Position numbers and translations under genes: made by a program. This document shows, one piece after another, positions 1 to 11,474 of a stretch of DNA of 64,000 bases. The notes under the pieces are model-generated. The model was not told where the DNA came from and made no database searches. It saw only the letters and a list, made by a program, of their open reading frames with translations. Every line of letters starts with the position of its first letter. Position 1 is the first letter of the stretch. Source of the DNA: a virus; the IMG/VR virus record IMGVR_UViG_3300009709_000022, positions 1 through 64,000 of that record; one strand, given 5' to 3'.

Positions 1-65
1 AGACGCGCTGCATTCAAAACGCAGTGTCCTCGGACGTGCGGGTTCGATCCCCGCGGCCGGCACCA
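1..65 (+). tRNA. tRNA-Leu(CAA), 5' truncated by window edge
   Basis: Anticodon loop TT-CAA-AA, long variable arm, T-loop GTTCGAT, ends ACCA. Confidence 0.85.
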
Positions 66-69
66 AGAT

Positions 70-158
70 AGTGAGTTGGGGGAGATGGATTAACCCAGCG
101 TCCTGCTAAGACGCCATGCCTGCGGGCATCATCAGTTCGAATCTGATACTCACTGCCA
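70..158 (+). tRNA. tRNA-Ser(GCT)
   Basis: Acceptor AGTGAGT/ACTCACT, arm GCGTC-CTGCTAA-GACGC, long V arm, GCCA end. Confidence 0.93.
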
Positions 159-161
159 CAT

Positions 162-250
162 GGAGGGTGCCGAGCACGGTGCTCAAACGGTCCTGAAAAC
201 CGCGGTCTGTACGCGAGTGCAGAATGGTTCAATTCCGTCACCCTCTTCCA
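162..250 (+). tRNA. tRNA-Ser(TGA) with C33
   Basis: Acceptor GGAGGGT/ACCCTCT, loop CC-TGA-AA, long V arm, CCA. Confidence 0.85.
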
Positions 251-253
251 CAT

Positions 254-338
254 GGACGCGCGGGCAAAAGGTCGCCCACCCAGTCTGTAAAACTGGGGCC
301 TCACGGCACTGAAGGTTCGACTCCTTCCGCGTCCACCA
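254..338 (+). tRNA. tRNA-Tyr(GTA)
   Basis: CCAGT-CTGTAAA-ACTGG arm, V arm, ACCA. Confidence 0.95.
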
Positions 339-381
339 TTTTTCTGTTGCATCCATGCTTGCACTCGTGAGAGATTGTTTT

Positions 382-459
382 TGCGCGGTAGAGCAGTCCG
401 GTTAGCTCGCGTGGCTCATAACCACGAGGTCGGGGGTTCGAATCCCTCCTGCGCAACCA
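382..459 (+). tRNA. tRNA-Met(CAT), initiator-like
   Basis: CGTGG-CTCATAA-CCACG; fMet-type D arm GAGCAGTCCGGTTAGCTC; only two G-C pairs at stem base and a U1-A72 pair. Confidence 0.88.
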
Positions 460-461
460 TT

Positions 462-957
462 GAAGTTCGTATCCGGGAATCAGAGAAATCTGTTGGGTGC
501 GCGCAACACAAGGCCTCTTCGAGAAAGTCCTGTGTGCCCTGGGGGTACTGAAGCCATATATCTCCCGTAGGTGGCTTCTGCGAGTCCGTCGTAACAAGGT
601 CAGCAACCGTAATATCTGCCAAAACGGACCACCGGTGACAGCTCGGAGAGACGAGCAGACATTGAGATACCACACGAGAGGGTGAAAGGAATCTCTGCTG
701 TTGTACGGTGTGTCGCTCCTAAGAGGCCAACGGTAAGGGAGCCAGCTCTACGATCAGACAACGGTTGGGCGGCAACAGAGATGCAGTTCCGAGTATCCCG
801 TATTCAGAGAGCCGGATGGGCACCGGCGTAAGCGAAGGCAAGCCGCGCCAGCGGTGATGGCAGACAGAACCGATCGATTGAGCCAGGGTATATTCCACCC
901 TGATCGGTGCCGCCGAGCAACCAAAGTCCGAGCGAGCCCGGCGCTATATCCGGGCAA
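462..957 (+). ncRNA. Large structured ncRNA, GOLLD-like candidate
   Basis: No credible ORF; helices 550-557/571-578, 584-589/624-629, 691-702/771-782, 869-876/901-908, 936-941/950-955; lies inside a tRNA array. Confidence 0.5.
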
Positions 958-979
958 AACTTTTTGCGAGGACGAAACC

Positions 980-1246
980 GTGGAAAAGACAGTTGAAGAT
1001 CGGGTAAGCGAAATACTTTTCGAGCAGATGCATGGTGGCGCTCTGACTTACAACTCGGACGAAATCAAGCCAGAATCTAGTCTTGCCGAAGATTTGGGGT
1101 TCGACTCGCTCGACCTGGTAGAGACCGTGATGACGCTTGAAGAGCAGTTCGACATCACGATCACCGACGAAGAAGCGGAAGCTGTTTCAGACAAAACCTT
1201 CGCGGATGTTGTTACTCTGGTGAAGAAAAAGCTGGAGGAGAAGTAG
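980..1246 (+). CDS. acpP: Acyl carrier protein
   Basis: LGFDSLDLVE phosphopantetheine-attachment motif, acidic, LEEQFDITI; GTG start after GAGGA. Confidence 0.9.
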   Translation: MEKTVEDRVSEILFEQMHGGALTYNSDEIKPESSLAEDLGFDSLDLVETVMTLEEQFDITITDEEAEAVSDKTFADVVTLVKKKLEEK

Positions 1247-1248
1247 CC

Positions 1249-1524
1249 ATGGCAGATCCGACGATTCCGGACGTAGAAGATAAAGAGCTTCCGCTGTACG
1301 TGTGCCACAAGGAAGTGCGCGCGCTGAAAATTGCCCGCGTCGAATACTTGAGCATGTCACTGGTGCGTGTCTACTTCGAAGATGATTCGTTTGGATTCCG
1401 CGACTATGCCACGGAGAACCGTCCTGTTCCGCAGGCCGGCTACTACTACGTGGAGTATTCGAACGGCTACTACAGTTCTTCGCCGGCGGAAGAGTTCGAA
1501 GACGGTTACACGTTGAAGCAGTAA
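1249..1524 (+). CDS. Conserved small phage protein
   Basis: YxCHKEVRALKI and GYYxxSPAEEFEDGY motifs recalled from phage proteins; RBS GGAGGAG. Confidence 0.7.
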   Translation: MADPTIPDVEDKELPLYVCHKEVRALKIARVEYLSMSLVRVYFEDDSFGFRDYATENRPVPQAGYYYVEYSNGYYSSSPAEEFEDGYTLKQ

Positions 1525-1535
1525 GCCATCAAGAT

Positions 1536-1673
1536 GGCGCCGCGCAGGCCGATCCAATCGGTCTAGTGGCGCCCCGGAAACGTTGAGCCTGGGTGATGCC
1601 AGCACGGAAGGATAGGCGCAAGCCGAAAGGAGTGGGGGCGCAGAGGAACCCCTTCCATCCGCCTCAACGTTTC
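1536..1673 (+). ncRNA. Candidate structured RNA upstream of tRNA-Asp
   Basis: 11-bp stem 1577-1587/1663-1673 enclosing 1606-1611/1651-1656 and a GCAA tetraloop hairpin; separate hairpin 1536-1573. Confidence 0.4.
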
Positions 1674-1679
1674 ACCCTC

Positions 1680-1753
1680 GGTCCCGTCGTTCAGTGGCAG
1701 GACGCTTGATTGTCTATCAGGCTACCGGAGTTCGATTCTCCGCGGGACCGCCA
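1680..1753 (+). tRNA. tRNA-Asp(GTC)
   Basis: GGTCCCG/CGGGACC acceptor, loop TT-GTC-TA, GCCA. Confidence 0.92.
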
Positions 1754-1774
1754 AAGATTTGCGAGGACGACGCA

Positions 1775-1945
1775 ATGGACCTATACGCGAGAAAAGCTGA
1801 AGACGGCAGTTGCTGGCTTGTTCTGAAGAGAGTTTTCGGCCCGAGCAGTGAGGGCTGGAAAGAGCGATTTCCCCGGTGGGAAGAAGTTGTTGGTATGGGC
1901 TCTACTCGGAAACAAGCATTTGCCGATGCTGAGGCGCGCGCATGA
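1775..1945 (+). CDS. Small hypothetical protein
   Basis: ATG after GCGAGGACGA motif; overlaps next gene (ATGA). Confidence 0.6.
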   Translation: MDLYARKAEDGSCWLVLKRVFGPSSEGWKERFPRWEEVVGMGSTRKQAFADAEARA

Positions 1946-2208
1946 GTAACTGGGGAACAGTAGAGACGTGGAGCGAAGACAAGAGCGAGACTATCGCGCT
2001 TGATGTCGTTCCTGTTTTGGAGTTCAACGGTGAAGTGTTCATGTCGGCCGCGCATGAAAAGGGTGAGCTTTGCCAATGCAAGCCACTTGGTATGAAGAAC
2101 GACCAAGGAATCCAGATGTGGATTCACAACGACCCCGAACATCCAGGTTCAAACGAACGCATCGCCACTGGCGATTACGAAGGAGTGCATCATGGCCGGA
2201 TTCAGTAA
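1942..2208 (+). CDS. Hypothetical protein
   Basis: Coupled ORF in operon. Confidence 0.6.
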   Translation: MSNWGTVETWSEDKSETIALDVVPVLEFNGEVFMSAAHEKGELCQCKPLGMKNDQGIQMWIHNDPEHPGSNERIATGDYEGVHHGRIQ

Positions 2209-2410
2209 AGAAGACATTGAAGAGTTGTTCACGTATCACGCACCAAAGGATGATCAGCCACAGCGATACCAGGCCATTCGTGATGCTGCCAAGCAGTTTG
2301 CGCTCGTGTTGATTGCAAACACGAAGCCGAGCGCGGACCAGTCATCCGCTGTTCGCCATCTTCGCGATTGTGTGATGACTGCCAATGCCTCGATCGCGCT
2401 GGAGAAGTAG
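2192..2410 (+). CDS. Acb2/Tad1-hairpin-like protein (putative immune-signal sponge)
   Basis: FTYHAP...RYQAIR.AAK...S.D.S.A...L...VM.ANASIA pattern, recalled family resemblance; RBS AAGGAG. Confidence 0.6.
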   Translation: MAGFSKEDIEELFTYHAPKDDQPQRYQAIRDAAKQFALVLIANTKPSADQSSAVRHLRDCVMTANASIALEK

Positions 2411-2412
2411 CC

Positions 2413-2565
2413 ATGGAGAAGACCTACCAAGTTAAGGCTTTCACTTCGTGCCGTGACATGGAAGATTGGCTCAACGAAAACGCGACTGAATATGAACCCA
2501 TCAGCATTGCAGACGCCGACCGCTATGTCACTGTGTTGGTGAAGCGCATCATCAAGCCGAGTTAG
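2413..2565 (+). CDS. Small hypothetical protein
   Basis: RBS GGAGAAG, tight operon spacing. Confidence 0.55.
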   Translation: MEKTYQVKAFTSCRDMEDWLNENATEYEPISIADADRYVTVLVKRIIKPS

Positions 2566-2566
2566 C

Positions 2567-3082
2567 ATGGCGAAGATCGTCACCTATCCGAGCGACATCC
2601 TGAAGACGAACTGCACGCCGGTAGAACCCGGCAGCAGTGTCGCTCACCATCTGCAGCGCGAGCTTCGTGCCACCATGCACGCCGGCCGCGCTCAGGGGAT
2701 CGGCCTGGCAGCGCCGCAGATTGGCATTACGCTGCGCGCGTTCGCCATGGATACGCGATTCCTGAAGTTGAAGTGCCCCGACGTGTTCTTTAATCCTGAA
2801 GTGATCGAAGAGAGCCCAGAGGTGGACGTAGAGGAAGAATCTTGTCTCAGCTTTCCGCCCAAAGTGAAAGTGCGTGTACAGCGCAGGAAGCGTGTGCGGG
2901 TCAAGGCGTGTGATGTGAACGGCAAGGATTTCGAGATTGATTTGGTCGGGCTCGCCGCGCGTTGCGCGCTGCATGAGATCGACCACCTGAACGGCAAAAC
3001 AATCCTTGACCACGCGGGGAAGAAAGAAAAAAATCGCATCCTTGGTGAAATTGCGGTTGACATCAAGCGTGGGCGCAAGTAG
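2567..3082 (+). CDS. def: Peptide deformylase
   Basis: GIGLAAPQIG, ESCLS, HEIDHLNG motifs. Confidence 0.95.
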   Translation: MAKIVTYPSDILKTNCTPVEPGSSVAHHLQRELRATMHAGRAQGIGLAAPQIGITLRAFAMDTRFLKLKCPDVFFNPEVIEESPEVDVEEESCLSFPPKVKVRVQRRKRVRVKACDVNGKDFEIDLVGLAARCALHEIDHLNGKTILDHAGKKEKNRILGEIAVDIKRGRK

Positions 3083-3085
3083 ATT
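3057..3085 (+). promoter_or_regulatory. Sigma70-type promoter for tRNA operon 2
   Basis: TTGACA (3057-3062), 17 bp, TAGATT (3080-3085). Confidence 0.8.
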
Positions 3086-3095
3086 CGAAATCGTT

Positions 3096-3167
3096 ATGAA
3101 GATGTCGATGACACATACGTTTACCAATCGCGCCGCGGCACAACCGCGCCAGGGTATCCGCATGTAA
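3096..3167 (+). CDS. Attenuator leader peptide 1 (MKMSMTHTFTNRAAAQPRQGIRM)
   Basis: 23-codon ORF just after the promoter; codons 6-20 are all read by downstream-cluster tRNAs. Confidence 0.75.
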   Translation: MKMSMTHTFTNRAAAQPRQGIRM

Positions 3168-3238
3168 GCGCCAGATCTTCTCCAGGTAAAACCAGAGAGG
3201 CCCCCCGGCGCTAACCAGCCCAGGGGGCCATAGTTTTT
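3167..3238 (+). terminator. Attenuator 1 (antiterminator/terminator)
   Basis: Terminator GGCCCCC 3199-3205/GGGGGCC 3223-3229 with T-run 3234-3238; competing helix 3167-3172/3207-3212 plus 3177-3182/3195-3200. Confidence 0.6.
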
Positions 3239-3244
3239 GCACGA

Positions 3245-3319
3245 TGTTCGGTAGCTCAATGGAAGAGCGCGGAGCTGTTAACTCCGGAGATGTGGGTTCG
3301 ACCCCCACCTGAACAGCCA
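3245..3319 (+). tRNA. tRNA-Asn(GTT)
   Basis: CGGAG-CTGTTAA-CTCCG, GCCA. Confidence 0.93.
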
Positions 3320-3325
3320 GTTTGA

Positions 3326-3402
3326 TGGGAAGTAGTTCAAGTAGGCAGAACGCTGCGCTCTGGACGCAGAGGTTGAAGGTTCGAGGCCTTCCTTCCCATC
3401 CA
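3326..3402 (+). tRNA. tRNA-Gln(CTG)
   Basis: CTGCG-CTCTGGA-CGCAG, U1-A72, CCA. Confidence 0.92.
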
Positions 3403-3412
3403 CAAATTTTGA

Positions 3413-3486
3413 TCCGTGTTCGTTCAATGGTAGGACGGCGACCTTTGGAGTCACCTATCGGGGTTCGATTCCCTGACACGGATCCA
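3413..3486 (+). tRNA. tRNA-Gln(TTG)
   Basis: Loop CT-TTG-GA, acceptor TCCGTGT/ACACGGA, CCA. Confidence 0.9.
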
Positions 3487-3490
3487 GTTT

Positions 3491-3566
3491 GCGGGAATAG
3501 CTCAGTGGTATGAGCGTCGGCTTGCCAAGTCGAAGGCCGTGGGTTCGACCCCCACTTCCCGCTCCA
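3491..3566 (+). tRNA. tRNA-Gly(GCC)
   Basis: GCGGGAA start, loop TT-GCC-AA, TCCA. Confidence 0.95.
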
Positions 3567-3573
3567 CTTCAAC

Positions 3574-3649
3574 GCCGGTGTAGCTCAGTTGGAAGAGCAG
3601 CGCACTCGTAACGCGCAGGTCGCCGGTTCGATTCCGGCCGCCGGCTCCA
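3574..3649 (+). tRNA. tRNA-Thr(CGT)
   Basis: Loop CT-CGT-AA, canonical cloverleaf. Confidence 0.93.
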
Positions 3650-3673
3650 AAAGGAAGAGGAAGGAGGCAACGT

Positions 3674-4186
3674 GTGGGACGCATTCTTGAAGCTGCGGTG
3701 TTGGTTCTCAACGCATCGTACGAGCCTATTCACATCTGCGGCGCACGTCGTGCTCTTTCTCTTGTAGTGAAGGACACGGCGCATGTTGAGCATCACACGG
3801 GCCGCGAAGTCTATGCCGGGATCATGCTTCCGAGCGTTATCCGTTTGAAGCGGTACCGCAAGGTTCCGAATCGTGTGCAGGTGTTGACGCGGAAGAATGT
3901 GCTGATGCGCGACAACAACACCTGCCAGTATTGCGGCGTAGTGTTCGTGCCGTCTGAATTGACGCTTGACCACGTCATGCCGCGGTCTCGGGGTGGTATA
4001 TCGACGTGGGAGAACCTGGTCGCCGCGTGTGGCCCGTGCAATCGCGAGAAGGCGGATCGTACGCCAGAGGAGGCCTGCATGCCGCTTCTGCGGCGTCCCA
4101 GGCCTGTCACGCTACACACGGCGCGCGGGATCCTTCGTCAGCATGGTCATTCGATGGAGGCGTGGCGTCCGTACTTGTTCTTTTAA
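3674..4186 (+). CDS. HNH endonuclease (McrA-like)
   Basis: VLVLNASYEP, RDNNTCQYCG, TLDHVMPRSRGG, NLVAACGPCN; RBS AAGGAGG. Confidence 0.92.
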   Translation: MGRILEAAVLVLNASYEPIHICGARRALSLVVKDTAHVEHHTGREVYAGIMLPSVIRLKRYRKVPNRVQVLTRKNVLMRDNNTCQYCGVVFVPSELTLDHVMPRSRGGISTWENLVAACGPCNREKADRTPEEACMPLLRRPRPVTLHTARGILRQHGHSMEAWRPYLFF

Positions 4187-4262
4187 GCCGCTGGAGTTCG
4201 GGAGGTAGAACGCTCCCTTGGTATGGGAGAGGATTCGGGTTCGACGCCCGACAGCGGCTCCA
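4187..4262 (+). tRNA. tRNA-Thr(GGT)
   Basis: CTCCC-TTGGTAT-GGGAG; abuts HNH stop codon. Confidence 0.88.
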
Positions 4263-4269
4263 ACAATTC

Positions 4270-4345
4270 GCCCGGTTAGCTCATTCGGTAGAGCGCCTGT
4301 TTTGTACTCAGGAGGCGGCGGGATCATAGCCTGCACCGGGCTCCA
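4270..4345 (+). tRNA. tRNA-Thr(TGT), atypical T-loop
   Basis: Loop TT-TGT-AC; T-loop ATCATAG. Confidence 0.8.
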
Positions 4346-4351
4346 ACATGT

Positions 4352-4427
4352 GGAGGGTATGGCCGAGCGGCAGAGGCGCAGGTCTGTGGCACCTGAAACC
4401 GGAGTTCAAGTCTCCGTGCCCTCCCCA
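4352..4427 (+). tRNA. tRNA-His(GTG)
   Basis: CAGGT-CTGTGGC-ACCTG, encoded G-1:C73. Confidence 0.92.
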
Positions 4428-4447
4428 ATAAGTTCGTTGTAAGAAGT

Positions 4448-4522
4448 GGGCGCGTAGTGCTAGCGGGAACACATCCGGCCTGCAACCGGAAATTGAGGGT
4501 TCGACTCCCTCCGTGTCCACCA
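4448..4522 (+). tRNA. tRNA-Ala(TGC) with C33
   Basis: TCCGG-CCTGCAA-CCGGA; G3:U70 Ala identity pair; A73. Confidence 0.87.
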
Positions 4523-4528
4523 AGTTTT

Positions 4529-4604
4529 GGCTGAGTAGCTGATGAGGTCTTAGCGCCGCGCTGAAAACGCGGAGATGTCGGTTCGATACCGGCCTCAGCC
4601 ACCA
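4529..4604 (+). tRNA. tRNA-Phe(GAA)
   Basis: CCGCG-CTGAAAA-CGCGG, ACCA. Confidence 0.92.
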
Positions 4605-4609
4605 TAGTT

Positions 4610-4683
4610 CGGGGTATAGCTGGAGGGTCAAGCCTACGTCCTGGGAACGTAAGATGACAGTTCGATTCTGTCTACCCCGACCA
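4610..4683 (+). tRNA. tRNA-Pro(TGG) with C33
   Basis: C1-G72, A73, TACGT-CCTGGGA-ACGTA. Confidence 0.85.
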
Positions 4684-4687
4684 TCAT

Positions 4688-4765
4688 CCACCCGTCGCCC
4701 AACTGGATAGGGCACCGCGCTACGAACGCGGAATAGTGTAGGTTCGATCCCTACCGGGTGGACCA
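4688..4765 (+). tRNA. tRNA-Arg(ACG)
   Basis: CCGCG-CTACGAA-CGCGG, ACCA. Confidence 0.92.
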
Positions 4766-4779
4766 TTTACAATGCTTGC

Positions 4780-4965
4780 ATGAGCGAGCCAAAGTACAAC
4801 CTCATGAAAGAAGCACGCGACACGGTGAGTGGGTGGGCGGCAGTGGCGAAGAACCTCACGCTGAAAGCCGCTGAGGCGATGGCAGCTCGCCGCGAAGCAC
4901 TTACACCTTGGGCATTCCACCACAAGAATCCCGATCGCGTGTATCACTTGATTGAGCCGGTGTAA
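4780..4965 (+). CDS. Small hypothetical protein
   Basis: Fills the gap between tRNA clusters; start overlaps ATGCTTGCAT motif. Confidence 0.55.
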   Translation: MSEPKYNLMKEARDTVSGWAAVAKNLTLKAAEAMAARREALTPWAFHHKNPDRVYHLIEPV

Positions 4966-4971
4966 AAATAA

Positions 4972-5002
4972 TTGCGGCGAACAGCGGTTCCTGTGGTAAG
5001 TT
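4972..5002 (+). promoter_or_regulatory. Putative extended -10 promoter for tRNA operon 3
   Basis: TGnTAAGTT at 4994-5002, TTGCGG at 4972, AT-rich upstream. Confidence 0.5.
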
Positions 5003-5024
5003 CTTCAACAGCAGATACACGATC

Positions 5025-5099
5025 ATGAGGCAGATAACCAAAAACGTCGTCACCATTCAGATTCGCGGAAAGCGGATGTGGGAAGGTGCGCGTACTTAG
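5025..5099 (+). CDS. Attenuator leader peptide 2 (MRQITKNVVTIQIRGKRMWEGART)
   Basis: 24 codons including AGG, ATA, AAA, GTC, ATT, GGA, AAG, CGG, ATG, TGG, GAA, matching downstream tRNAs. Confidence 0.75.
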   Translation: MRQITKNVVTIQIRGKRMWEGART

Positions 5100-5167
5100 G
5101 GGTCTGTTTCACAAGCTCACTTGCGACAAGTGAACGGGCCCCTCCTAACCGGAGGGGCTTTGCTTTT
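5098..5167 (+). terminator. Attenuator 2 (antiterminator/terminator)
   Basis: Terminator GCCCCTCC-TAACC-GGAGGGGC-TTTGCTTTT (5138-5167); 11-bp antiterminator 5098-5108/5133-5143 overlapping the stop codon. Confidence 0.8.
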
Positions 5168-5179
5168 GGTCTTTGACAA
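5168..5179 (+). promoter_or_regulatory. boxA-like Nus antitermination element
   Basis: GGTCTTTGACAA resembles rrn boxA GCTCTTTAACAA. Confidence 0.45.
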
Positions 5180-5198
5180 TCGAATCGTATTCACCAAT

Positions 5199-5274
5199 GA
5201 GGGTGAAGTTCATGTGGAAGAACGCCGGTCTCCAAAACCGGATGCTGCCCGTTCGAACCGGGCCACCCTCGCCA
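5199..5274 (+). tRNA. tRNA-Trp(CCA)
   Basis: CCGGT-CTCCAAA-ACCGG, GCCA. Confidence 0.93.
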
Positions 5275-5275
5275 T

Positions 5276-5350
5276 CCCTCTTTAGCTCATCGGAAGAGCA
5301 ACCGGCTCATAACCGGTAGGCGCCAGGGTCAGCACCTGGAAGAGGGACCA
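5276..5350 (+). tRNA. tRNA(CAT), elongator Met or Ile2; atypical T-loop
   Basis: ACCGG-CTCATAA-CCGGT; T-loop GTCAGCA. Confidence 0.8.
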
Positions 5351-5352
5351 TC

Positions 5353-5438
5353 GCGTCCGTGGCAGAGAGGCTTATGCACCCGACTCTTAATCGGAGGGAG
5401 AGATCCCAACGTCGGTTCGAATCCGGCCGGACGCACCA
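5353..5438 (+). tRNA. tRNA-Lys(CTT) with long variable arm
   Basis: Loop CT-CTT-AA; V-arm GGGA-GAGA-TCCC; Leu-like D arm. Confidence 0.8.
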
Positions 5439-5444
5439 ATTTTC

Positions 5445-5521
5445 GGGATCGTCGCATAGAGGATAGCTGCACTCGCCTTTTAAGCGAAGAGACGTGAGTT
5501 CGAATCTCACCGGTCCCACCA
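5445..5521 (+). tRNA. tRNA-Lys(TTT)
   Basis: Loop CT-TTT-AA, ACCA. Confidence 0.9.
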
Positions 5522-5526
5522 TTTAT

Positions 5527-5602
5527 GCGCCTGTAGCTCAGAGGACAGAGCAGTGGACTTCTAAGCCAACGGCCGCTGGTTCGACTCCAGCCAGGCGCTC
5601 CA
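5527..5602 (+). tRNA. tRNA-Arg(TCT)
   Basis: Loop CT-TCT-AA (weak stem), canonical D and T arms. Confidence 0.87.
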
Positions 5603-5607
5603 GTTTT

Positions 5608-5681
5608 GGCGTGTTCGTTCAACGGTAGGACACCTGCTTTTCACGCAGAGAACACGGGTTCAACTCCCGTACACGCCCCCA
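5608..5681 (+). tRNA. tRNA-Glu(TTC)
   Basis: Loop TT-TTC-AC, GGCGTGT/ACACGCC. Confidence 0.9.
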
Positions 5682-5682
5682 T

Positions 5683-5758
5683 GACCCTGTAGCTCAGTGG
5701 AGAGAGCGGCCGGCTCCTACCCGGCAGGTCCCGCGTTCGAGTCGCGGCAGGGTCACCA
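5683..5758 (+). tRNA. tRNA-Arg(CCT)
   Basis: GCCGG-CTCCTAC-CCGGC. Confidence 0.9.
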
Positions 5759-5762
5759 ATTC

Positions 5763-5839
5763 GCGCGCGTAGCTCAGTGGACCAGAGCGATGCTCTCCGA
5801 AGGCATAGGCCGCAGGTTCAAGTCCTGCCGCGCGCACCA
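5763..5839 (+). tRNA. tRNA-Arg(CCG)
   Basis: ATGCT-CTCCGAA-GGCAT. Confidence 0.92.
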
Positions 5840-5844
5840 GTTTC

Positions 5845-5920
5845 GCCAGATTCGACAAGCGGCTAAGTCACTTGGCCTACACCCAAGCATCCGGGGGTTC
5901 GAGTCCCTCATCTGGCACCA
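5845..5920 (+). tRNA. tRNA-Val(TAC) with C33
   Basis: CTTGG-CCTACAC-CCAAG, A73. Confidence 0.87.
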
Positions 5921-5924
5921 AGTT

Positions 5925-6026
5925 CGCCCATTCGTCTGGCCGGCGGTTCGAGACCGCGCTGCGCACCCAACCGCGCAAACGGGTCCGGCTCCGAGTGGGG
6001 GTGGTTCGATTCCACCAGGGCGGCTA
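5925..6026 (+). ncRNA. tRNA-like element lacking a normal anticodon arm and CCA
   Basis: Perfect T arm GGTGG-TTCGATT-CCACC (6000-6016) and CGCCC/GGGCG acceptor-like stem; aberrant middle; ends GCTA. Confidence 0.45.
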
Positions 6027-6047
6027 ACGGCCGCTCGCGCAGGGTTT

Positions 6048-6121
6048 CCTCGCGTAGCTCAACGGAAGAGCTTCCGCTTGATAAGCGGCAGACAGTGGTT
6101 CAACTCCACTCGCGAGGACCA
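6048..6121 (+). tRNA. tRNA-Ile(GAT)
   Basis: Loop TT-GAT-AA, ACCA. Confidence 0.92.
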
Positions 6122-6168
6122 TCTCATGCAAGCATCGTGTATGCTGTCACAAAAGGAGGGCAACCTGC

Positions 6169-6378
6169 ATGCCCATTACGACACGACGGAAACGAAAGAC
6201 CACGCCGCGCAAGACTTCACTGAAGAAGATTGCAACTCTGATCATCATGCGCGACAGCATGACTGAGTTCGAGATCGCCGACGCGAAGAGAGGGTTCGCG
6301 AAGTCCGGGGTGAATCTGATTGTCATTCCTTACGGCAGTGGATCGTCTACGCCTCGTATTGAGGCTCAACCGTTTTAA
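6169..6378 (+). CDS. Small basic hypothetical protein
   Basis: RBS AAGGAGG; stop abuts tRNA-Gly. Confidence 0.6.
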   Translation: MPITTRRKRKTTPRKTSLKKIATLIIMRDSMTEFEIADAKRGFAKSGVNLIVIPYGSGSSTPRIEAQPF

Positions 6379-6454
6379 GCGAGCATCGTCCAATGGTTAG
6401 GGCCACAGCCTTCCAAGCTGTTGATGACCGGTTCGAGTCCGGCTGTTCGCTCCA
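6379..6454 (+). tRNA. tRNA-Gly(TCC)
   Basis: ACAGC-CTTCCAA-GCTGT, TCCA. Confidence 0.93.
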
Positions 6455-6460
6455 AATCAG

Positions 6461-6484
6461 AAGGCCACCCATTCGGGTGGCCTT
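6461..6484. terminator. Hairpin closing the tRNA array between convergent units
   Basis: AAGGCCACCC-ATTC-GGGTGGCCTT. Confidence 0.75.
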
Positions 6485-6490
6485 TGCCAT

Positions 6491-6892
6491 TTACGCTTGC
6501 AGCATGCCAGAGGAAAGAAGACCTCTTAAAATACCTGCAAAAATGTGATCTTTTGCGCGTTGCGCCTTTGGCAGTTCAGAGTAGGGGACGAAGCATGGAT
6601 GCTCTTTTTTTTCCGCATCCTTAACGGGACCGTACCCCCATCCATCGGCACGTTTTTGTTCCATCCAGGACTCGTGAAGTCGTTCCGGTATCTGCCGAAG
6701 GCGCTCGCTGCCATCTCCGTAATATCGCACCGTCCGCAGGAAGTATTTGACGCCGGTAATGTTCGTTTCTTGCTGCCATGAAGGAGCGGATGACCAGTCA
6801 GGAAAAGATGTGTCTCCCAATGCAAGGGCGTATGCCCGGTTGGCTTCGTAGCAAATACGCGCCGCTTCTTCAATTGTGATGAGTTCTTCCAT
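6491..6892 (-). CDS. RyR-domain phage protein
   Basis: HESWMEQKRADGWGYG...K.HPCFVPYSELP..QRAKD. Confidence 0.85.
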   Translation of the reverse strand: MEELITIEEAARICYEANRAYALALGDTSFPDWSSAPSWQQETNITGVKYFLRTVRYYGDGSERLRQIPERLHESWMEQKRADGWGYGPVKDAEKKEHPCFVPYSELPKAQRAKDHIFAGILRGLLSSGMLQA

Positions 6893-6966
6893 GATGTCCT
6901 CGCTAGTGGATGTGGTGATGCTTGCACGAATGCTATCATCACACCATCTCAACGCTGGTGCGTCCT

Positions 6967-8331
6967 GTGATCATTTACAACTCACTATTCCCCCAGGTGC
7001 AGAACGGGCTCGCTGCCCGGCTCCGCTCCATGCTGCCCACCCTTGCCGCCTACGGCTTCAACGGCCTGCTGTGGCCACCCCTCACACAGAACGGATCGGG
7101 TGGAGAGAAGTCGCAGTCCCTCGGTTATGACAAGCGGTACGACCTGCATGTTGGACAGTGGGATTCTCTCCGCTGGGGTTCCGCGCAGGATGTTCAGGCG
7201 ACGAATCTGGAAGCCCACCGCAACGGGATGATGGTGCTGGAGGATTCTGTCATCCATCAGTATTCTGGCGCCGGCGCGCAGACATACAACGAGCTGGGAG
7301 CGGAAGGCCAGCCCGATTCTACGCTGTTCCCAAAGCGTCCTTCCTGCTTCGTCCATCCGGAGACGCCGCGAGACACGCTATTCGACGCTGATGGCGATCA
7401 GCCATACGGCGACCAGGTAACGTACCAGCACTGCAAGCCCGCCGGATACATGCTCAAGGGCATCATCCAGGCAACGCAGTGGCGTCGCAACCGTCTAGGC
7501 ATGGACGGCATGCGCGTGGACATGGCTAAAAACGAGGCCTCTGCGATCGTCAAACAGTACGCTGCAGCCGTTGGCGGGTGGAACTTCTGCGAGACCTTCG
7601 TTGGTGACAAGGGCGAACTAGGCAGCTTCATCTCGCAGACTGGACAGCGCGTGCTGGACTTCCCATTCCATTGGGCAGTGCAACACATCTGTGACCACGG
7701 TTGGTCATTGCGCTCATTCCCCGGCAGCTCGCTATGCGAGATGAATGCCAGCAAGAGCGTTCTCTTTGTTGACACCGCGGACACGGATCAGAGCAACGAT
7801 GAGAACGTGAAGTTCAACAAGCTGTGGGCATACCTGCTTGCGTTGACCATGCCCGCGGCGGCCGCACTGGTTTACGCGGGCGATTACGAACGCTATGGGC
7901 TAGCGAAGCCCATCGACAACCTTGCGTGGATTGCCACGACGTTCGCTATTGGCGCGCTCACTTGGCAGCACGTCGACGACACGGCGTTGGTGTGGTCGCG
8001 GGATGGTGACGGAGGCTCCCTGGGATGGTCCGGTGGCTTGCTCTGTGCCTTCAGCACGCAGCCGGTGGAGCAACGCAGCGTATGGACTCCAACCACCTTT
8101 GCGTCAGGCACACACCTGCACGATTACACCGGACATGGGCCCGACTTGTGGGTGGACGATGACGGATGGGTTGAGCTGCAGCTTGGGCCCAACGTCAACG
8201 GAACCGCCGCAAACTACGTCTGCTACGCACCTGCCGGCGTCAATTACAAAATACCCATCCACGCGCGTCCAGAGGGCATCCGGGGCTCGCTCTACGACTT
8301 CTCTGACATAACTGTGAGGTTCACCGCATGA
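6967..8331 (+). CDS. GH13 alpha-amylase-family glycoside hydrolase (start uncertain, 6922-6967)
   Basis: LWPP, GYD, DGMRVDMAK (nucleophile), FCE (acid/base), FVDTAD (region IV). Confidence 0.85.
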   Translation: MIIYNSLFPQVQNGLAARLRSMLPTLAAYGFNGLLWPPLTQNGSGGEKSQSLGYDKRYDLHVGQWDSLRWGSAQDVQATNLEAHRNGMMVLEDSVIHQYSGAGAQTYNELGAEGQPDSTLFPKRPSCFVHPETPRDTLFDADGDQPYGDQVTYQHCKPAGYMLKGIIQATQWRRNRLGMDGMRVDMAKNEASAIVKQYAAAVGGWNFCETFVGDKGELGSFISQTGQRVLDFPFHWAVQHICDHGWSLRSFPGSSLCEMNASKSVLFVDTADTDQSNDENVKFNKLWAYLLALTMPAAAALVYAGDYERYGLAKPIDNLAWIATTFAIGALTWQHVDDTALVWSRDGDGGSLGWSGGLLCAFSTQPVEQRSVWTPTTFASGTHLHDYTGHGPDLWVDDDGWVELQLGPNVNGTAANYVCYAPAGVNYKIPIHARPEGIRGSLYDFSDITVRFTA

Positions 8332-10576: not shown

Positions 10577-11474
10577 GCAATCCCACAGACTGGTTAATCA
10601 CTTTCTGCAGCTTGTCGATGGCAGGCATTTTGGCCGACTCTTCCCCTTTGTACCGGGCGTAGAAGTCGGCCAAAGTCTTTGCGTCTTCCATCGCCTCCAT
10701 GAGCGCCATTGCGCGTTCGAAGCGCATGGGTTCCTCCAACTTTGCAATGCGCCGGATCTCCACATCGAGGCGGCGCTCATACGGCAATACAGGGATGGCC
10801 TTGTCAGGTCCACTGTACTTGTTGTGGAGCATCGAAAGCATGGCCTGGCGATCAAAGCGCGCGGGGTCGCGAAAGTGATAAAGAGCCGTGAAGAATCGAT
10901 GGAAGGCCGCGATACCCATGAGTTCGCCAAACACCGGATCTGAATGCAACGGGATGTCGTAGAGCACGCACAGCCTTCGAAAGTCACGGAGGTCACAGTC
11001 AAGCAAGTCGCACACCATGGACGCCGGAAGAAACGGCCTCATGGGGAGAGGCATGAACATAGTACGCAGCCAGTCCATCGCGGCCGCCGCTGGCATCTGC
11101 ACAACTCCAGGACTAGATTCTTTCAGGTACCCGTGATTTACGAGCGGGTGCAGCCGGTCAATGGAAACACAGAGTTCTTTCGCGAGGTCAGCGAGAGGTA
11201 TTGTTCTCTTCGGACTTCCGGCCAGCGAGCTTTGAATCCCGATTTCTTTGGTGACGATCGCGCGCAATCTTTGAGAAGAAATCCGATCCCTTGATCTTGA
11301 GCGTTTGCTTGCCCCCGAGCGATCCGACTGTAGAGAAAAAGTCCGGGTCCGAGCGATGTAGGGCTTTCTTTGCTCGCTTTTTGGGGGCTGTTGATCCACT
11401 TTTCTTCGTCCTCTTAGCCGATGCCATGCTCGCATGATACCGCGTAGAATGCAGAAAGAAAAAGATGCTTGCAT
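10551..11474 (-). CDS. Hypothetical protein with HTH-like segments (true start probably near 11200)
   Basis: IPLADLAKELCVSIDRL...GYL; 5' part overlaps a more credible ORF. Confidence 0.55.
   Translation of the reverse strand: MQASFSFCILRGIMRAWHRLRGRRKVDQQPPKSEQRKPYIARTRTFSLQSDRSGASKRSRSRDRISSQRLRAIVTKEIGIQSSLAGSPKRTIPLADLAKELCVSIDRLHPLVNHGYLKESSPGVVQMPAAAAMDWLRTMFMPLPMRPFLPASMVCDLLDCDLRDFRRLCVLYDIPLHSDPVFGELMGIAAFHRFFTALYHFRDPARFDRQAMLSMLHNKYSGPDKAIPVLPYERRLDVEIRRIAKLEEPMRFERAMALMEAMEDAKTLADFYARYKGEESAKMPAIDKLQKVINQSVGLPTDSSSTP
11188..11427 (-). CDS. KGG/general-stress-like small basic protein
   Basis: Repeated DFFSxxG/A..GG motif; RBS-like GAG upstream. Confidence 0.55.
   Translation of the reverse strand: MASAKRTKKSGSTAPKKRAKKALHRSDPDFFSTVGSLGGKQTLKIKGSDFFSKIARDRHQRNRDSKLAGRKSEENNTSR

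Follow-up and report, generated by a model that had tools for sequence, protein, structure and literature searches.

Why would a bacteriophage place a short open reading frame (ORF) and a transcription terminator directly in front of its own transfer RNA (tRNA) genes? The question is raised by IMG/VR record IMGVR_UViG_3300009709_000022, a phage genome assembled from a moss metagenome (96,524 bp, 123-bp terminal repeat, 56% G+C), of which we analysed bases 1-64000 as a 64,000-nt window. Proteins encoded by the phage include a large subunit of the terminase, a portal protein and a helicase of the DnaB type, and its sole meaningful DNA match among named phages is Tunturiibacter phage Tunturi_5 (cultured, 309 kb, Acidobacteriota). 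ARAGORN detects 30 tRNA genes, all on one strand and grouped in three blocks, and the total of about 31 tRNAs spans nearly all amino acids. To our knowledge, phage tRNA genes are usually viewed as constitutive supplements to codon usage or as spares against tRNA-cleaving defences, and the control of their expression is essentially undescribed. We consider it quite likely that each of the three clusters is a transcription unit under a ribosome-mediated attenuator, in which fast translation of a leader ORF leads to termination and slow decoding to read-through; the phage would then probably make a tRNA block only under slow reading of its codons.

A first-pass annotation of this DNA had described one architecture for the two clusters that are complete in the window, and we could confirm it: an ORF of 23-24 codons, a helix overlapping its stop codon, a terminator with CTAACC at the apex and then 12 and 11 tRNAs, respectively. 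It had also placed a promoter ahead of each leader, which holds for leader 1; ahead of leader 2 the scan was negative and a weak extended -10 element can be picked out by eye. The features that make up the three units are the following, in window coordinates unless marked as genome coordinates:

3057-3085, plus strand: promoter-like sequence P1, TTGACA-17-TAGATT, sigma-70-like (10/12 matches in the scan)
3096-3167, plus strand: leader ORF 1, 23 codons (MKMSMTHTFTNRAAAQPRQGIRM), of which codons 6-20 are decoded by cluster-2 tRNAs
3163-3173, plus strand: predicted antiterminator strand 1, over the stop codon TAA, pairing with 3206-3216 (inner 5' arm and loop of terminator 1) at a predicted -13.1 kcal/mol
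3199-3238, plus strand: intrinsic terminator 1, a GC-rich hairpin of 13-14 bp whose apex has CTAACC, followed by ATAGTTTTT
3245-4765, plus strand: tRNA cluster 2, 12 tRNAs (ARAGORN, Rfam): Asn, Gln x2, Gly(gcc), Thr x3, His, Ala, Phe, Pro, Arg(acg)
4994-5002, plus strand: weak candidate extended -10 element of leader 2, TGgTAAGTT
5025-5099, plus strand: leader ORF 2, 24 codons (MRQITKNVVTIQIRGKRMWEGART), with codons suiting cluster-3 tRNAs
5097-5106, plus strand: predicted antiterminator strand 2, over the stop codon TAG, pairing with 5136-5144 (5' arm of terminator 2) at a predicted -14.2 kcal/mol
5136-5170, plus strand: intrinsic terminator 2, a 10-bp stem (hairpin 5136-5160) with 7 GC pairs, a CTAACC apex and a T-rich tail
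5171-5183, plus strand: TTTGACAATCGAA motif between terminator 2 and tRNA-Trp, kept at the same place in Tunturi_5
5199-6454, plus strand: tRNA cluster 3, 11 tRNAs (ARAGORN, Rfam): Trp, Met/Ile2(cat), Lys x2, Arg(tct, cct, ccg), Glu, Val, Ile, Gly(tcc)
6461-6484, plus strand: hairpin and T-run ending the cluster-3 unit, opposite a convergent gene, as read from the sequence
genome 96023-96052: cluster-1 promoter, TTGACG-18-TAGATT, with the same TAGATT -10 as P1 and the ATG six bases further
genome 96059-96133: cluster-1 leader, 24 codons (MKLLLSSSLYLSSYSGAWDRARLS), then a hairpin with a CTAACC loop and a T-run, then tRNA-Leu(taa)
1-1753, plus strand: tRNA cluster 1, window part: end of Leu(caa), Ser(gct), a UGA type-II tRNA (161-247), Tyr, Met, and Asp (1680-1753)

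The -10 element of P1 shares bases with the stop codon of the gene for peptide deformylase, and the P1 transcript is predicted to start 0-5 nt ahead of the leader 1 ATG. Terminators 1 and 2 begin 28-31 nt past the leader stop codons, with their CTAACC apices at 3211-3216 and 5145-5150; the hairpin of terminator 1 (3199-3229) has a predicted energy of -22.4 kcal/mol, and the terminator ends 7 nt ahead of tRNA-Asn. Cluster 1 spans the genome end, so that its head falls outside the window (genome 96023-96190; L003 12023-12190); its full content is three Leu tRNAs, of which Leu(taa) comes first, Ser(gct), the UGA type-II tRNA, Tyr, Met and Asp. Codons 3-15 of its leader encode Leu, Ser and Tyr exclusively and are followed by an Asp codon. 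An attenuator-like unit therefore heads 3/3 tRNA clusters of this genome. The first-pass annotation had listed amino acids lacking from the peptides, and these absences hold on the translations (W, E and V in leader 1; H, F and P in leader 2; L, Y and D in both); its assignment of L, Y and D to cluster 1 amounts to an implicit prediction, and it is at the head of that cluster that the Leu-, Ser- and Tyr-rich leader with its Asp codon was found.

How closely does each leader match the tRNAs that it precedes? We scored coverage, i.e. the number of tRNAs with at least one cognate leader codon under standard wobble, and as a second measure the count of cognate codons. The cluster-1 leader covers 7/8 tRNAs of its own cluster with 13/23 codons cognate, leader 1 covers all 12 tRNAs of cluster 2 (15/22 codons), and leader 2 covers 10 of the 11 tRNAs of cluster 3 (10/23 codons under strict wobble); when leaders are paired with the other clusters, 1-7 tRNAs are covered. 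Under a relaxed rule, in which a family-box U34 reads all four codons, cognate counts rise to 16/23, 16/22 and 13/23, and the coverage of leader 2 to 11/11. With both measures taken jointly, a comparison with 200,000 windows drawn at random from the coding sequence of the phage gives P <5e-6 for clusters 1 and 2 and 1.6e-3 for cluster 3, and each leader ranks first for its own cluster among the 272 ATG-initiated ORFs of 18-30 codons in six frames of the whole genome. The match between leader and cluster, which had been proposed for leaders 1 and 2, is real and far beyond chance. For the codon pairs read by G34 tRNAs in the three leaders, the U-ending codon, read by wobble, is used in 13/19 cases against 6.3 expected from the genome (P=0.002, in a test chosen post hoc), a choice that would make the sensor slower and more sensitive.

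The same arrangement recurs in other phages. Tunturi_5 carries three clusters in identical order, each headed by a short ORF and a terminator (L004, L005 and L006 are the fetched loci of this phage):

L005 26157-26255: Tunturi_5 cluster-1 leader, 32 codons, ahead of Leu/Cys/Leu/Leu/Tyr/Leu/Ser x3
L004 7306-7419: Tunturi_5 cluster-2 leader, 37 codons, ahead of Asn/Gln x2/Gly/Thr x3/Pro/His/Ala x3/Phe
L006 3074-3223: Tunturi_5 cluster-3 leader, annotated gp308, 49 codons, ahead of Trp/Asp/Met x2/Lys x2/Val x2/Arg x4/Glu x2/Ile/Gly

Two further clusters with leader-terminator units lie on IMG/VR contig L007, and one unit, here with a Shine-Dalgarno sequence, precedes Leu/Leu/Trp/Tyr/Ser x3/Cys on L008, an AT-rich contig of 127 kb. 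Peptides of corresponding clusters are homologous yet diverged, an eight-by-eight table of leaders against clusters is block-diagonal, and other short ORFs upstream in the fetched loci reach cognate fractions of 0.04-0.30. Leader content appears in part to track tRNA content, as the first-pass annotation had anticipated for related phages. Cys codons occur in cluster-1-type leaders solely where the cluster has a Cys tRNA (Tunturi_5, L007 and L008, not this phage); the Tunturi_5 cluster-3 leader has six Asp codons and a tRNA-Asp in its cluster, whereas that of this phage, with tRNA-Asp in cluster 1, has none; the L008 leader has Trp codons in its sensor part and a tRNA-Trp in its cluster; and the GAG codon is found where Glu(ctc) is present.

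Searches for closer relatives were less productive: single-protein searches with the deformylase and a 61-aa protein gave no matches, and a search with the large terminase subunit (TerL) returned contigs of 11-18 kb only, too short for the tRNA region. A DNA pattern derived from the cluster-3 leader had 0 matches, and one derived from the conserved CTCAGTTCG block of cluster-1 leaders had at least 117, none of them adjoining tRNAs among the matches listed.

Could such a leader act as a switch? Fold analysis covered nine units in four phages (this phage, Tunturi_5, L007 and L008). A terminator is present in 9/9 units, 18-34 nt past the stop codon, with stems that differ in sequence and pairing that is kept, and the first tRNA follows after 7-33 nt, or more in two Tunturi_5 units. 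Transcripts were folded up to the terminator loop, i.e. before the 3' arm is made; in this state the predicted partner of the terminator's 5' arm, again in 9/9 units, is a G-rich strand belonging to the final third of the ORF or to the stop-codon region, and in these truncated transcripts the antiterminator forms without a ribosome. For leaders 1 and 2 this recovers the stop-codon-overlapping antiterminators of the first-pass annotation; the arm of terminator 1 has an alternative partner in the GCGCC-containing codons 12-21. In a swap test the combination of an ORF with its own terminator arm was more stable than swapped combinations (permutation P=0.001), and the antiterminator duplexes beat dinucleotide shuffles in 7/9 units with P of 0.01-0.09, the energies of single units being marginal; for base-pair covariation the homologues are too few.

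The CTAACC apex can tentatively be read as the complement of the stop-codon contexts of leaders 1 and 2, with a weak fit for the third leader. As a general motif it was rejected, with a window count of 12 against 13.9 expected and no preservation in the terminator loops of the relatives.

With the ribosome modelled as a 28-nt footprint forced unpaired, an A site in the distal codons frees the terminator arm and one in the proximal codons does not, in 8/9 units; in leader 2, a ribosome at codons 23-25 lowers the pairing of the arm from 0.8 to 0.45. Cognate codons are concentrated before the antiterminator strand (111/187, compared with 30/77 within or after it; Fisher P=0.003). A distal antiterminator strand with cognate codons upstream of it is a geometry in which a stall gives read-through.

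That the leaders are translated, which way the switch works and what triggers it in the cell are inferred, as follows. The RNA would start at or a few bases before the ORF of 23-24 codons, whose first two thirds would serve as a sensor written in the codons of the downstream tRNAs and whose last third or stop region would provide the G-rich strand able to pair with the 5' arm of a terminator 18-34 nt further on. A quick ribosome would cover or melt this strand while the polymerase makes the terminator, which would then fold and leave the tRNA genes silent. Slow decoding at any sampled codon, be it from a small host pool, overdraft by phage translation or damage, would make the ribosome lag, so that the antiterminator persists and the polymerase enters the tRNA genes. 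The outcome would be a demand-driven feedback over three tRNA regulons sorted by amino acid, shut off once supply suffices, and feedback control of the phage's tRNA supply appears to us the most likely role of the units.

Several observations weigh against this reading. Apart from the lack of a leader 2 promoter in the scan, there is no Shine-Dalgarno sequence ahead of any of the three leaders of this phage, though many of its genes have one, and leader translation would need leaderless initiation or re-initiation; initiation at leader 1 would be leaderless or nearly so, since the P1 transcript would start within ~5 nt of the ATG. The conserved TTGACA-containing motif that follows terminator 2 could, if it is a promoter, bypass the attenuator. 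As to the codons, the first-pass annotation had proposed sampling isoacceptor by isoacceptor, which stands in part: when synonymous codons were redrawn with the peptide fixed, no single leader was significant, and summed over eight leaders synonymous shuffles gave a coverage of 72.5 +/- 2.7 tRNAs compared with the 80 observed (P=0.0016). Thus, the concordance is mainly at the level of the amino acid, and an isoacceptor-level signal is modestly supported. The AGA codon for tRNA-Arg(tct) is absent from leader 2 and, indeed, from both cluster-3 leaders, and with 1-3 codons for each tRNA the unit, instead of being a clean OR-gate, may gauge how fast the set as a whole is decoded. The covariation has further exceptions, as the Tunturi_5 cluster-1 leader has four Asp codons in its tail yet no Asp tRNA in its cluster, and the L007 cluster-1 unit includes tRNA-Asp with a leader devoid of Asp codons; moreover, common descent links the leaders of the three related phages, so that these leaders are not independent samples.

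The switch itself is also open to objections. All energies are equilibrium predictions. In leader 1, a ribosome at the stop codon lowers the pairing of the arm from 0.62 to 0.53 only, a weak release attributable to other GCGCC strands that can replace the antiterminator, and in two units, those of Tunturi_5 clusters 1 and 2, the antiterminator might form again with the ribosome at the stop. The folds contain no clear 1:2 (anti-antiterminator or pause) helix, full-length folds showing ORF-internal hairpins, so that an untranslated leader would be predicted to read through, unlike trpL. RNA evidence comes from one moss metatranscriptome, the sole RNA library with this phage, in which four identical contigs map to 1156-1519 and 3727-4196 (on the HNH endonuclease gene) and none to leaders or tRNAs; since contigs cannot show transcript ends, it is uninformative on attenuation.

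The first alternative to be weighed, along the lines proposed by the first-pass annotation, keeps the attenuator and changes its purpose: loss of a host isoacceptor to an anticodon nuclease of the PrrC, PARIS or retron type would induce the cluster that replaces it. Severe loss of a single tRNA would trigger the mechanism even at one codon, and some neighbouring genes provide context for such a role. A gene at 2192-2410, between clusters 1 and 2 and 700 nt upstream of leader 1, encodes a protein of 72 aa with a match to the Acb2/Tad1 hairpin domain at 49.9 bits (cut-off 27), likely a cyclic-nucleotide sponge against the cyclic oligonucleotide-based antiphage signalling system (CBASS) or Thoeris, and the Tunturi_5 clusters have genes for a tRNA ligase of the RtcB type and a CCA-adding enzyme beside them. 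However, neither a tRNA-targeting defence nor a host is known for this phage, neither RNA ligase nor repair genes turned up next to its clusters, some 31 tRNAs for nearly all amino acids suit general supply better than the replacement of a few targeted species, and supply feedback accounts for all observed features without a defence. We therefore regard a counter-defence purpose as unlikely, and we are similarly doubtful about the broader proposition that large phages sort their tRNAs into a few regulons with multiplexed ribosomal sensors of host-tRNA loss, as a damage-sensing counter-defence widespread among unrelated phages.

A second alternative accepts that the leaders are translated and regulatory and gives them another logic, such as sensing of tRNA charging, Rho or transcription-translation coupling, or stalling that lowers tRNA transcription. 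A stalled ribosome is indeed blind to whether a tRNA is absent or uncharged, and both the missing 1:2 helix and the two Tunturi_5 units in which the antiterminator could re-form behind a ribosome at the stop would fit. Against this, every leader is followed, at a fixed distance of 18-34 nt, by an intrinsic terminator that a ribosome halted at the stop would not reach, and in all nine units the predicted antiterminator strand is in the distal ORF, downstream of the cognate codons, which makes a different logic distinctly improbable. Finally, that there is no switch, the hairpins being plain terminators, insulators or processing signals and the ORFs untranslated or small peptides matched by chance or ancestry, may draw on the missing Shine-Dalgarno sequences and the marginal single-unit energies, but it is very hard to believe given a chance of about (1/272)^3 for the three top ranks, the recurrence of the concordance in other phages whose sequences have diverged and whose tRNA content has shifted, and the fact that a constitutive terminator 7-33 nt before the array, with the promoter upstream, would merely silence it. 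A T-box or a known leader family was rejected by the absence of an Rfam match: a scan of positions 1-8000 at E up to 1 gave tRNA-type matches only, and neither a T-box nor a Trp, His, Thr or Leu leader.

How would a feedback attenuator of this kind relate to known systems? The nearest described ones are the multivalent leaders of enterobacteria, the leaderless polycysteine attenuators of mycobacteria and, by function alone, T-boxes. The enterobacterial leaders serve amino-acid operons, with thrL responding to Thr and Ile and ilvL/ivbL to Ile, Leu and Val, beside trpL, hisL, leuL and pheL. The phage units resemble these in having a short ORF between promoter and genes, codons linked to the product, an intrinsic terminator and, as predicted, a competing helix whose fate the ribosome would set. 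They differ from them in regulating tRNA genes and not biosynthetic enzymes, in sampling 8-12 tRNA species with 1-3 codons each where the enterobacterial leaders have runs of one to three amino acids, and in having no Shine-Dalgarno sequence, no clear 1:2 helix and no Rfam leader match. The T-box binds uncharged tRNA directly, via a specifier codon and the T-box bulge and without a ribosome. As proposed for the phage units, a leader acting in cis through terminator and antiterminator reports there on the state of a specific tRNA and controls the translation apparatus, but each T-box reads a single tRNA, and its targets are genes for synthetases or amino acids. The pheST attenuator of E. coli, with its pheM leader, likewise places a leader-peptide attenuator ahead of genes for the decoding machinery; unlike the phage units, it senses one amino acid (Phe) and controls a synthetase. 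The leaderless polycysteine short ORFs of mycobacteria are reported in a preprint (bioRxiv 10.1101/834739) to be cysteine-responsive attenuators. They share with the phage leaders, as these are proposed to work, a position at or near the 5' end of the transcript, the lack of a Shine-Dalgarno sequence and decoding speed as the setting of a downstream operon, and differ in involving a single amino acid (in Cys runs), a cellular setting and protein-coding targets. Our literature search turned up no account of tRNA genes controlled by a leader peptide, and the Tunturi paper (PMC11924767) lists 43 tRNAs with leaders and terminators unmentioned.

A number of further observations concern the tRNA island itself. 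The sequence TTTGACAAYCGAA stands 15-25 nt ahead of tRNA-Trp both in this phage (window 5171-5183) and in Tunturi_5 (L006 3314-3326), and also precedes tRNA-Gln(ctg) in Tunturi_5 (L004, about 7693-7705). No -10 element matching it was found; a promoter used by a different form of polymerase, a signal for processing and a binding site are all candidate roles. The type-II tRNA-like gene at 161-247, which ARAGORN missed, has the anticodon UGA, scores 37 bits on the Rfam tRNA-Sec model and has a fold z-score of -2.8; its anticodon loop, CCUGAAA, has C33 in place of U33. C33 is also found in Ala(tgc), Pro(tgg) and Val(tac) (4448-4522, 4610-4683 and 5845-5920), each the sole tRNA of a four-codon box, and is absent from Gly(tcc), Thr(tgt) and Leu(tag). 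Between tRNA-Val and tRNA-Ile (5921-6047) there are two stretches resembling tRNA 3' halves (T-arm and acceptor strand), probably decayed tRNA genes, and cluster 3 contains a 69-aa ORF at 6169-6378.

Protein genes lie among the tRNAs as well: an acyl carrier protein (PP-binding; 980-1246) and the peptide deformylase (2567-3082) are encoded inside the island, and an HNH endonuclease gene (3674-4186) sits within cluster 2 between Thr(cgt) and Thr(ggt), the same site as in Tunturi_5. Counting L007, three phages have an HNH gene at this spot, after tRNA-Thr(cgt) and before the next tRNA-Thr (L004 8232-8753; L007 10001-10483). Its alignment against metagenome contigs returned 80 loci with identities of 56-61%. 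A tRNA was present at none of them, and the matches, on large soil metagenome contigs, look cellular and do not help with the leaders; as the closest homologues are on contigs without tRNAs, the gene was probably acquired from the host lineage. The stretch of ~500 nt between tRNA-Met and the acyl carrier protein gene (460-975) has no convincing ORF and was rejected as a structured RNA (no Rfam match, fold z-score of -0.5, no similarity to the relatives).

A candidate for a comparable unit was noticed in a 322-kb IMG/VR phage (L035, about 11195-11360), where TTGACA-17-TATACT leads to an ORF of 23 codons, with many for Thr, Gln, Asn, Ile, Gly and Trp, that precedes Gln/Ile/Trp/Thr/Gly/Asn/Gln/Met tRNAs, with 7/8 tRNAs covered and 15/22 codons cognate. 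The hairpin there starts at the stop codon and is not followed by a T-run, a form that suggests that the read-out may differ; we regard it as a possible unit.

If feedback attenuation does operate at these loci, it would be the first attenuator known over tRNA genes and the first to read many tRNA species at once, and it would explain why the tRNA genes of these phages come in blocks sorted by amino acid. It would also provide a compact natural device for sensing decoding capacity, one that might be put to use as a reporter. As Tunturi_5, growing on Tunturiibacter psychrotolerans, is a cultured relative with the same three units, the idea is directly testable.

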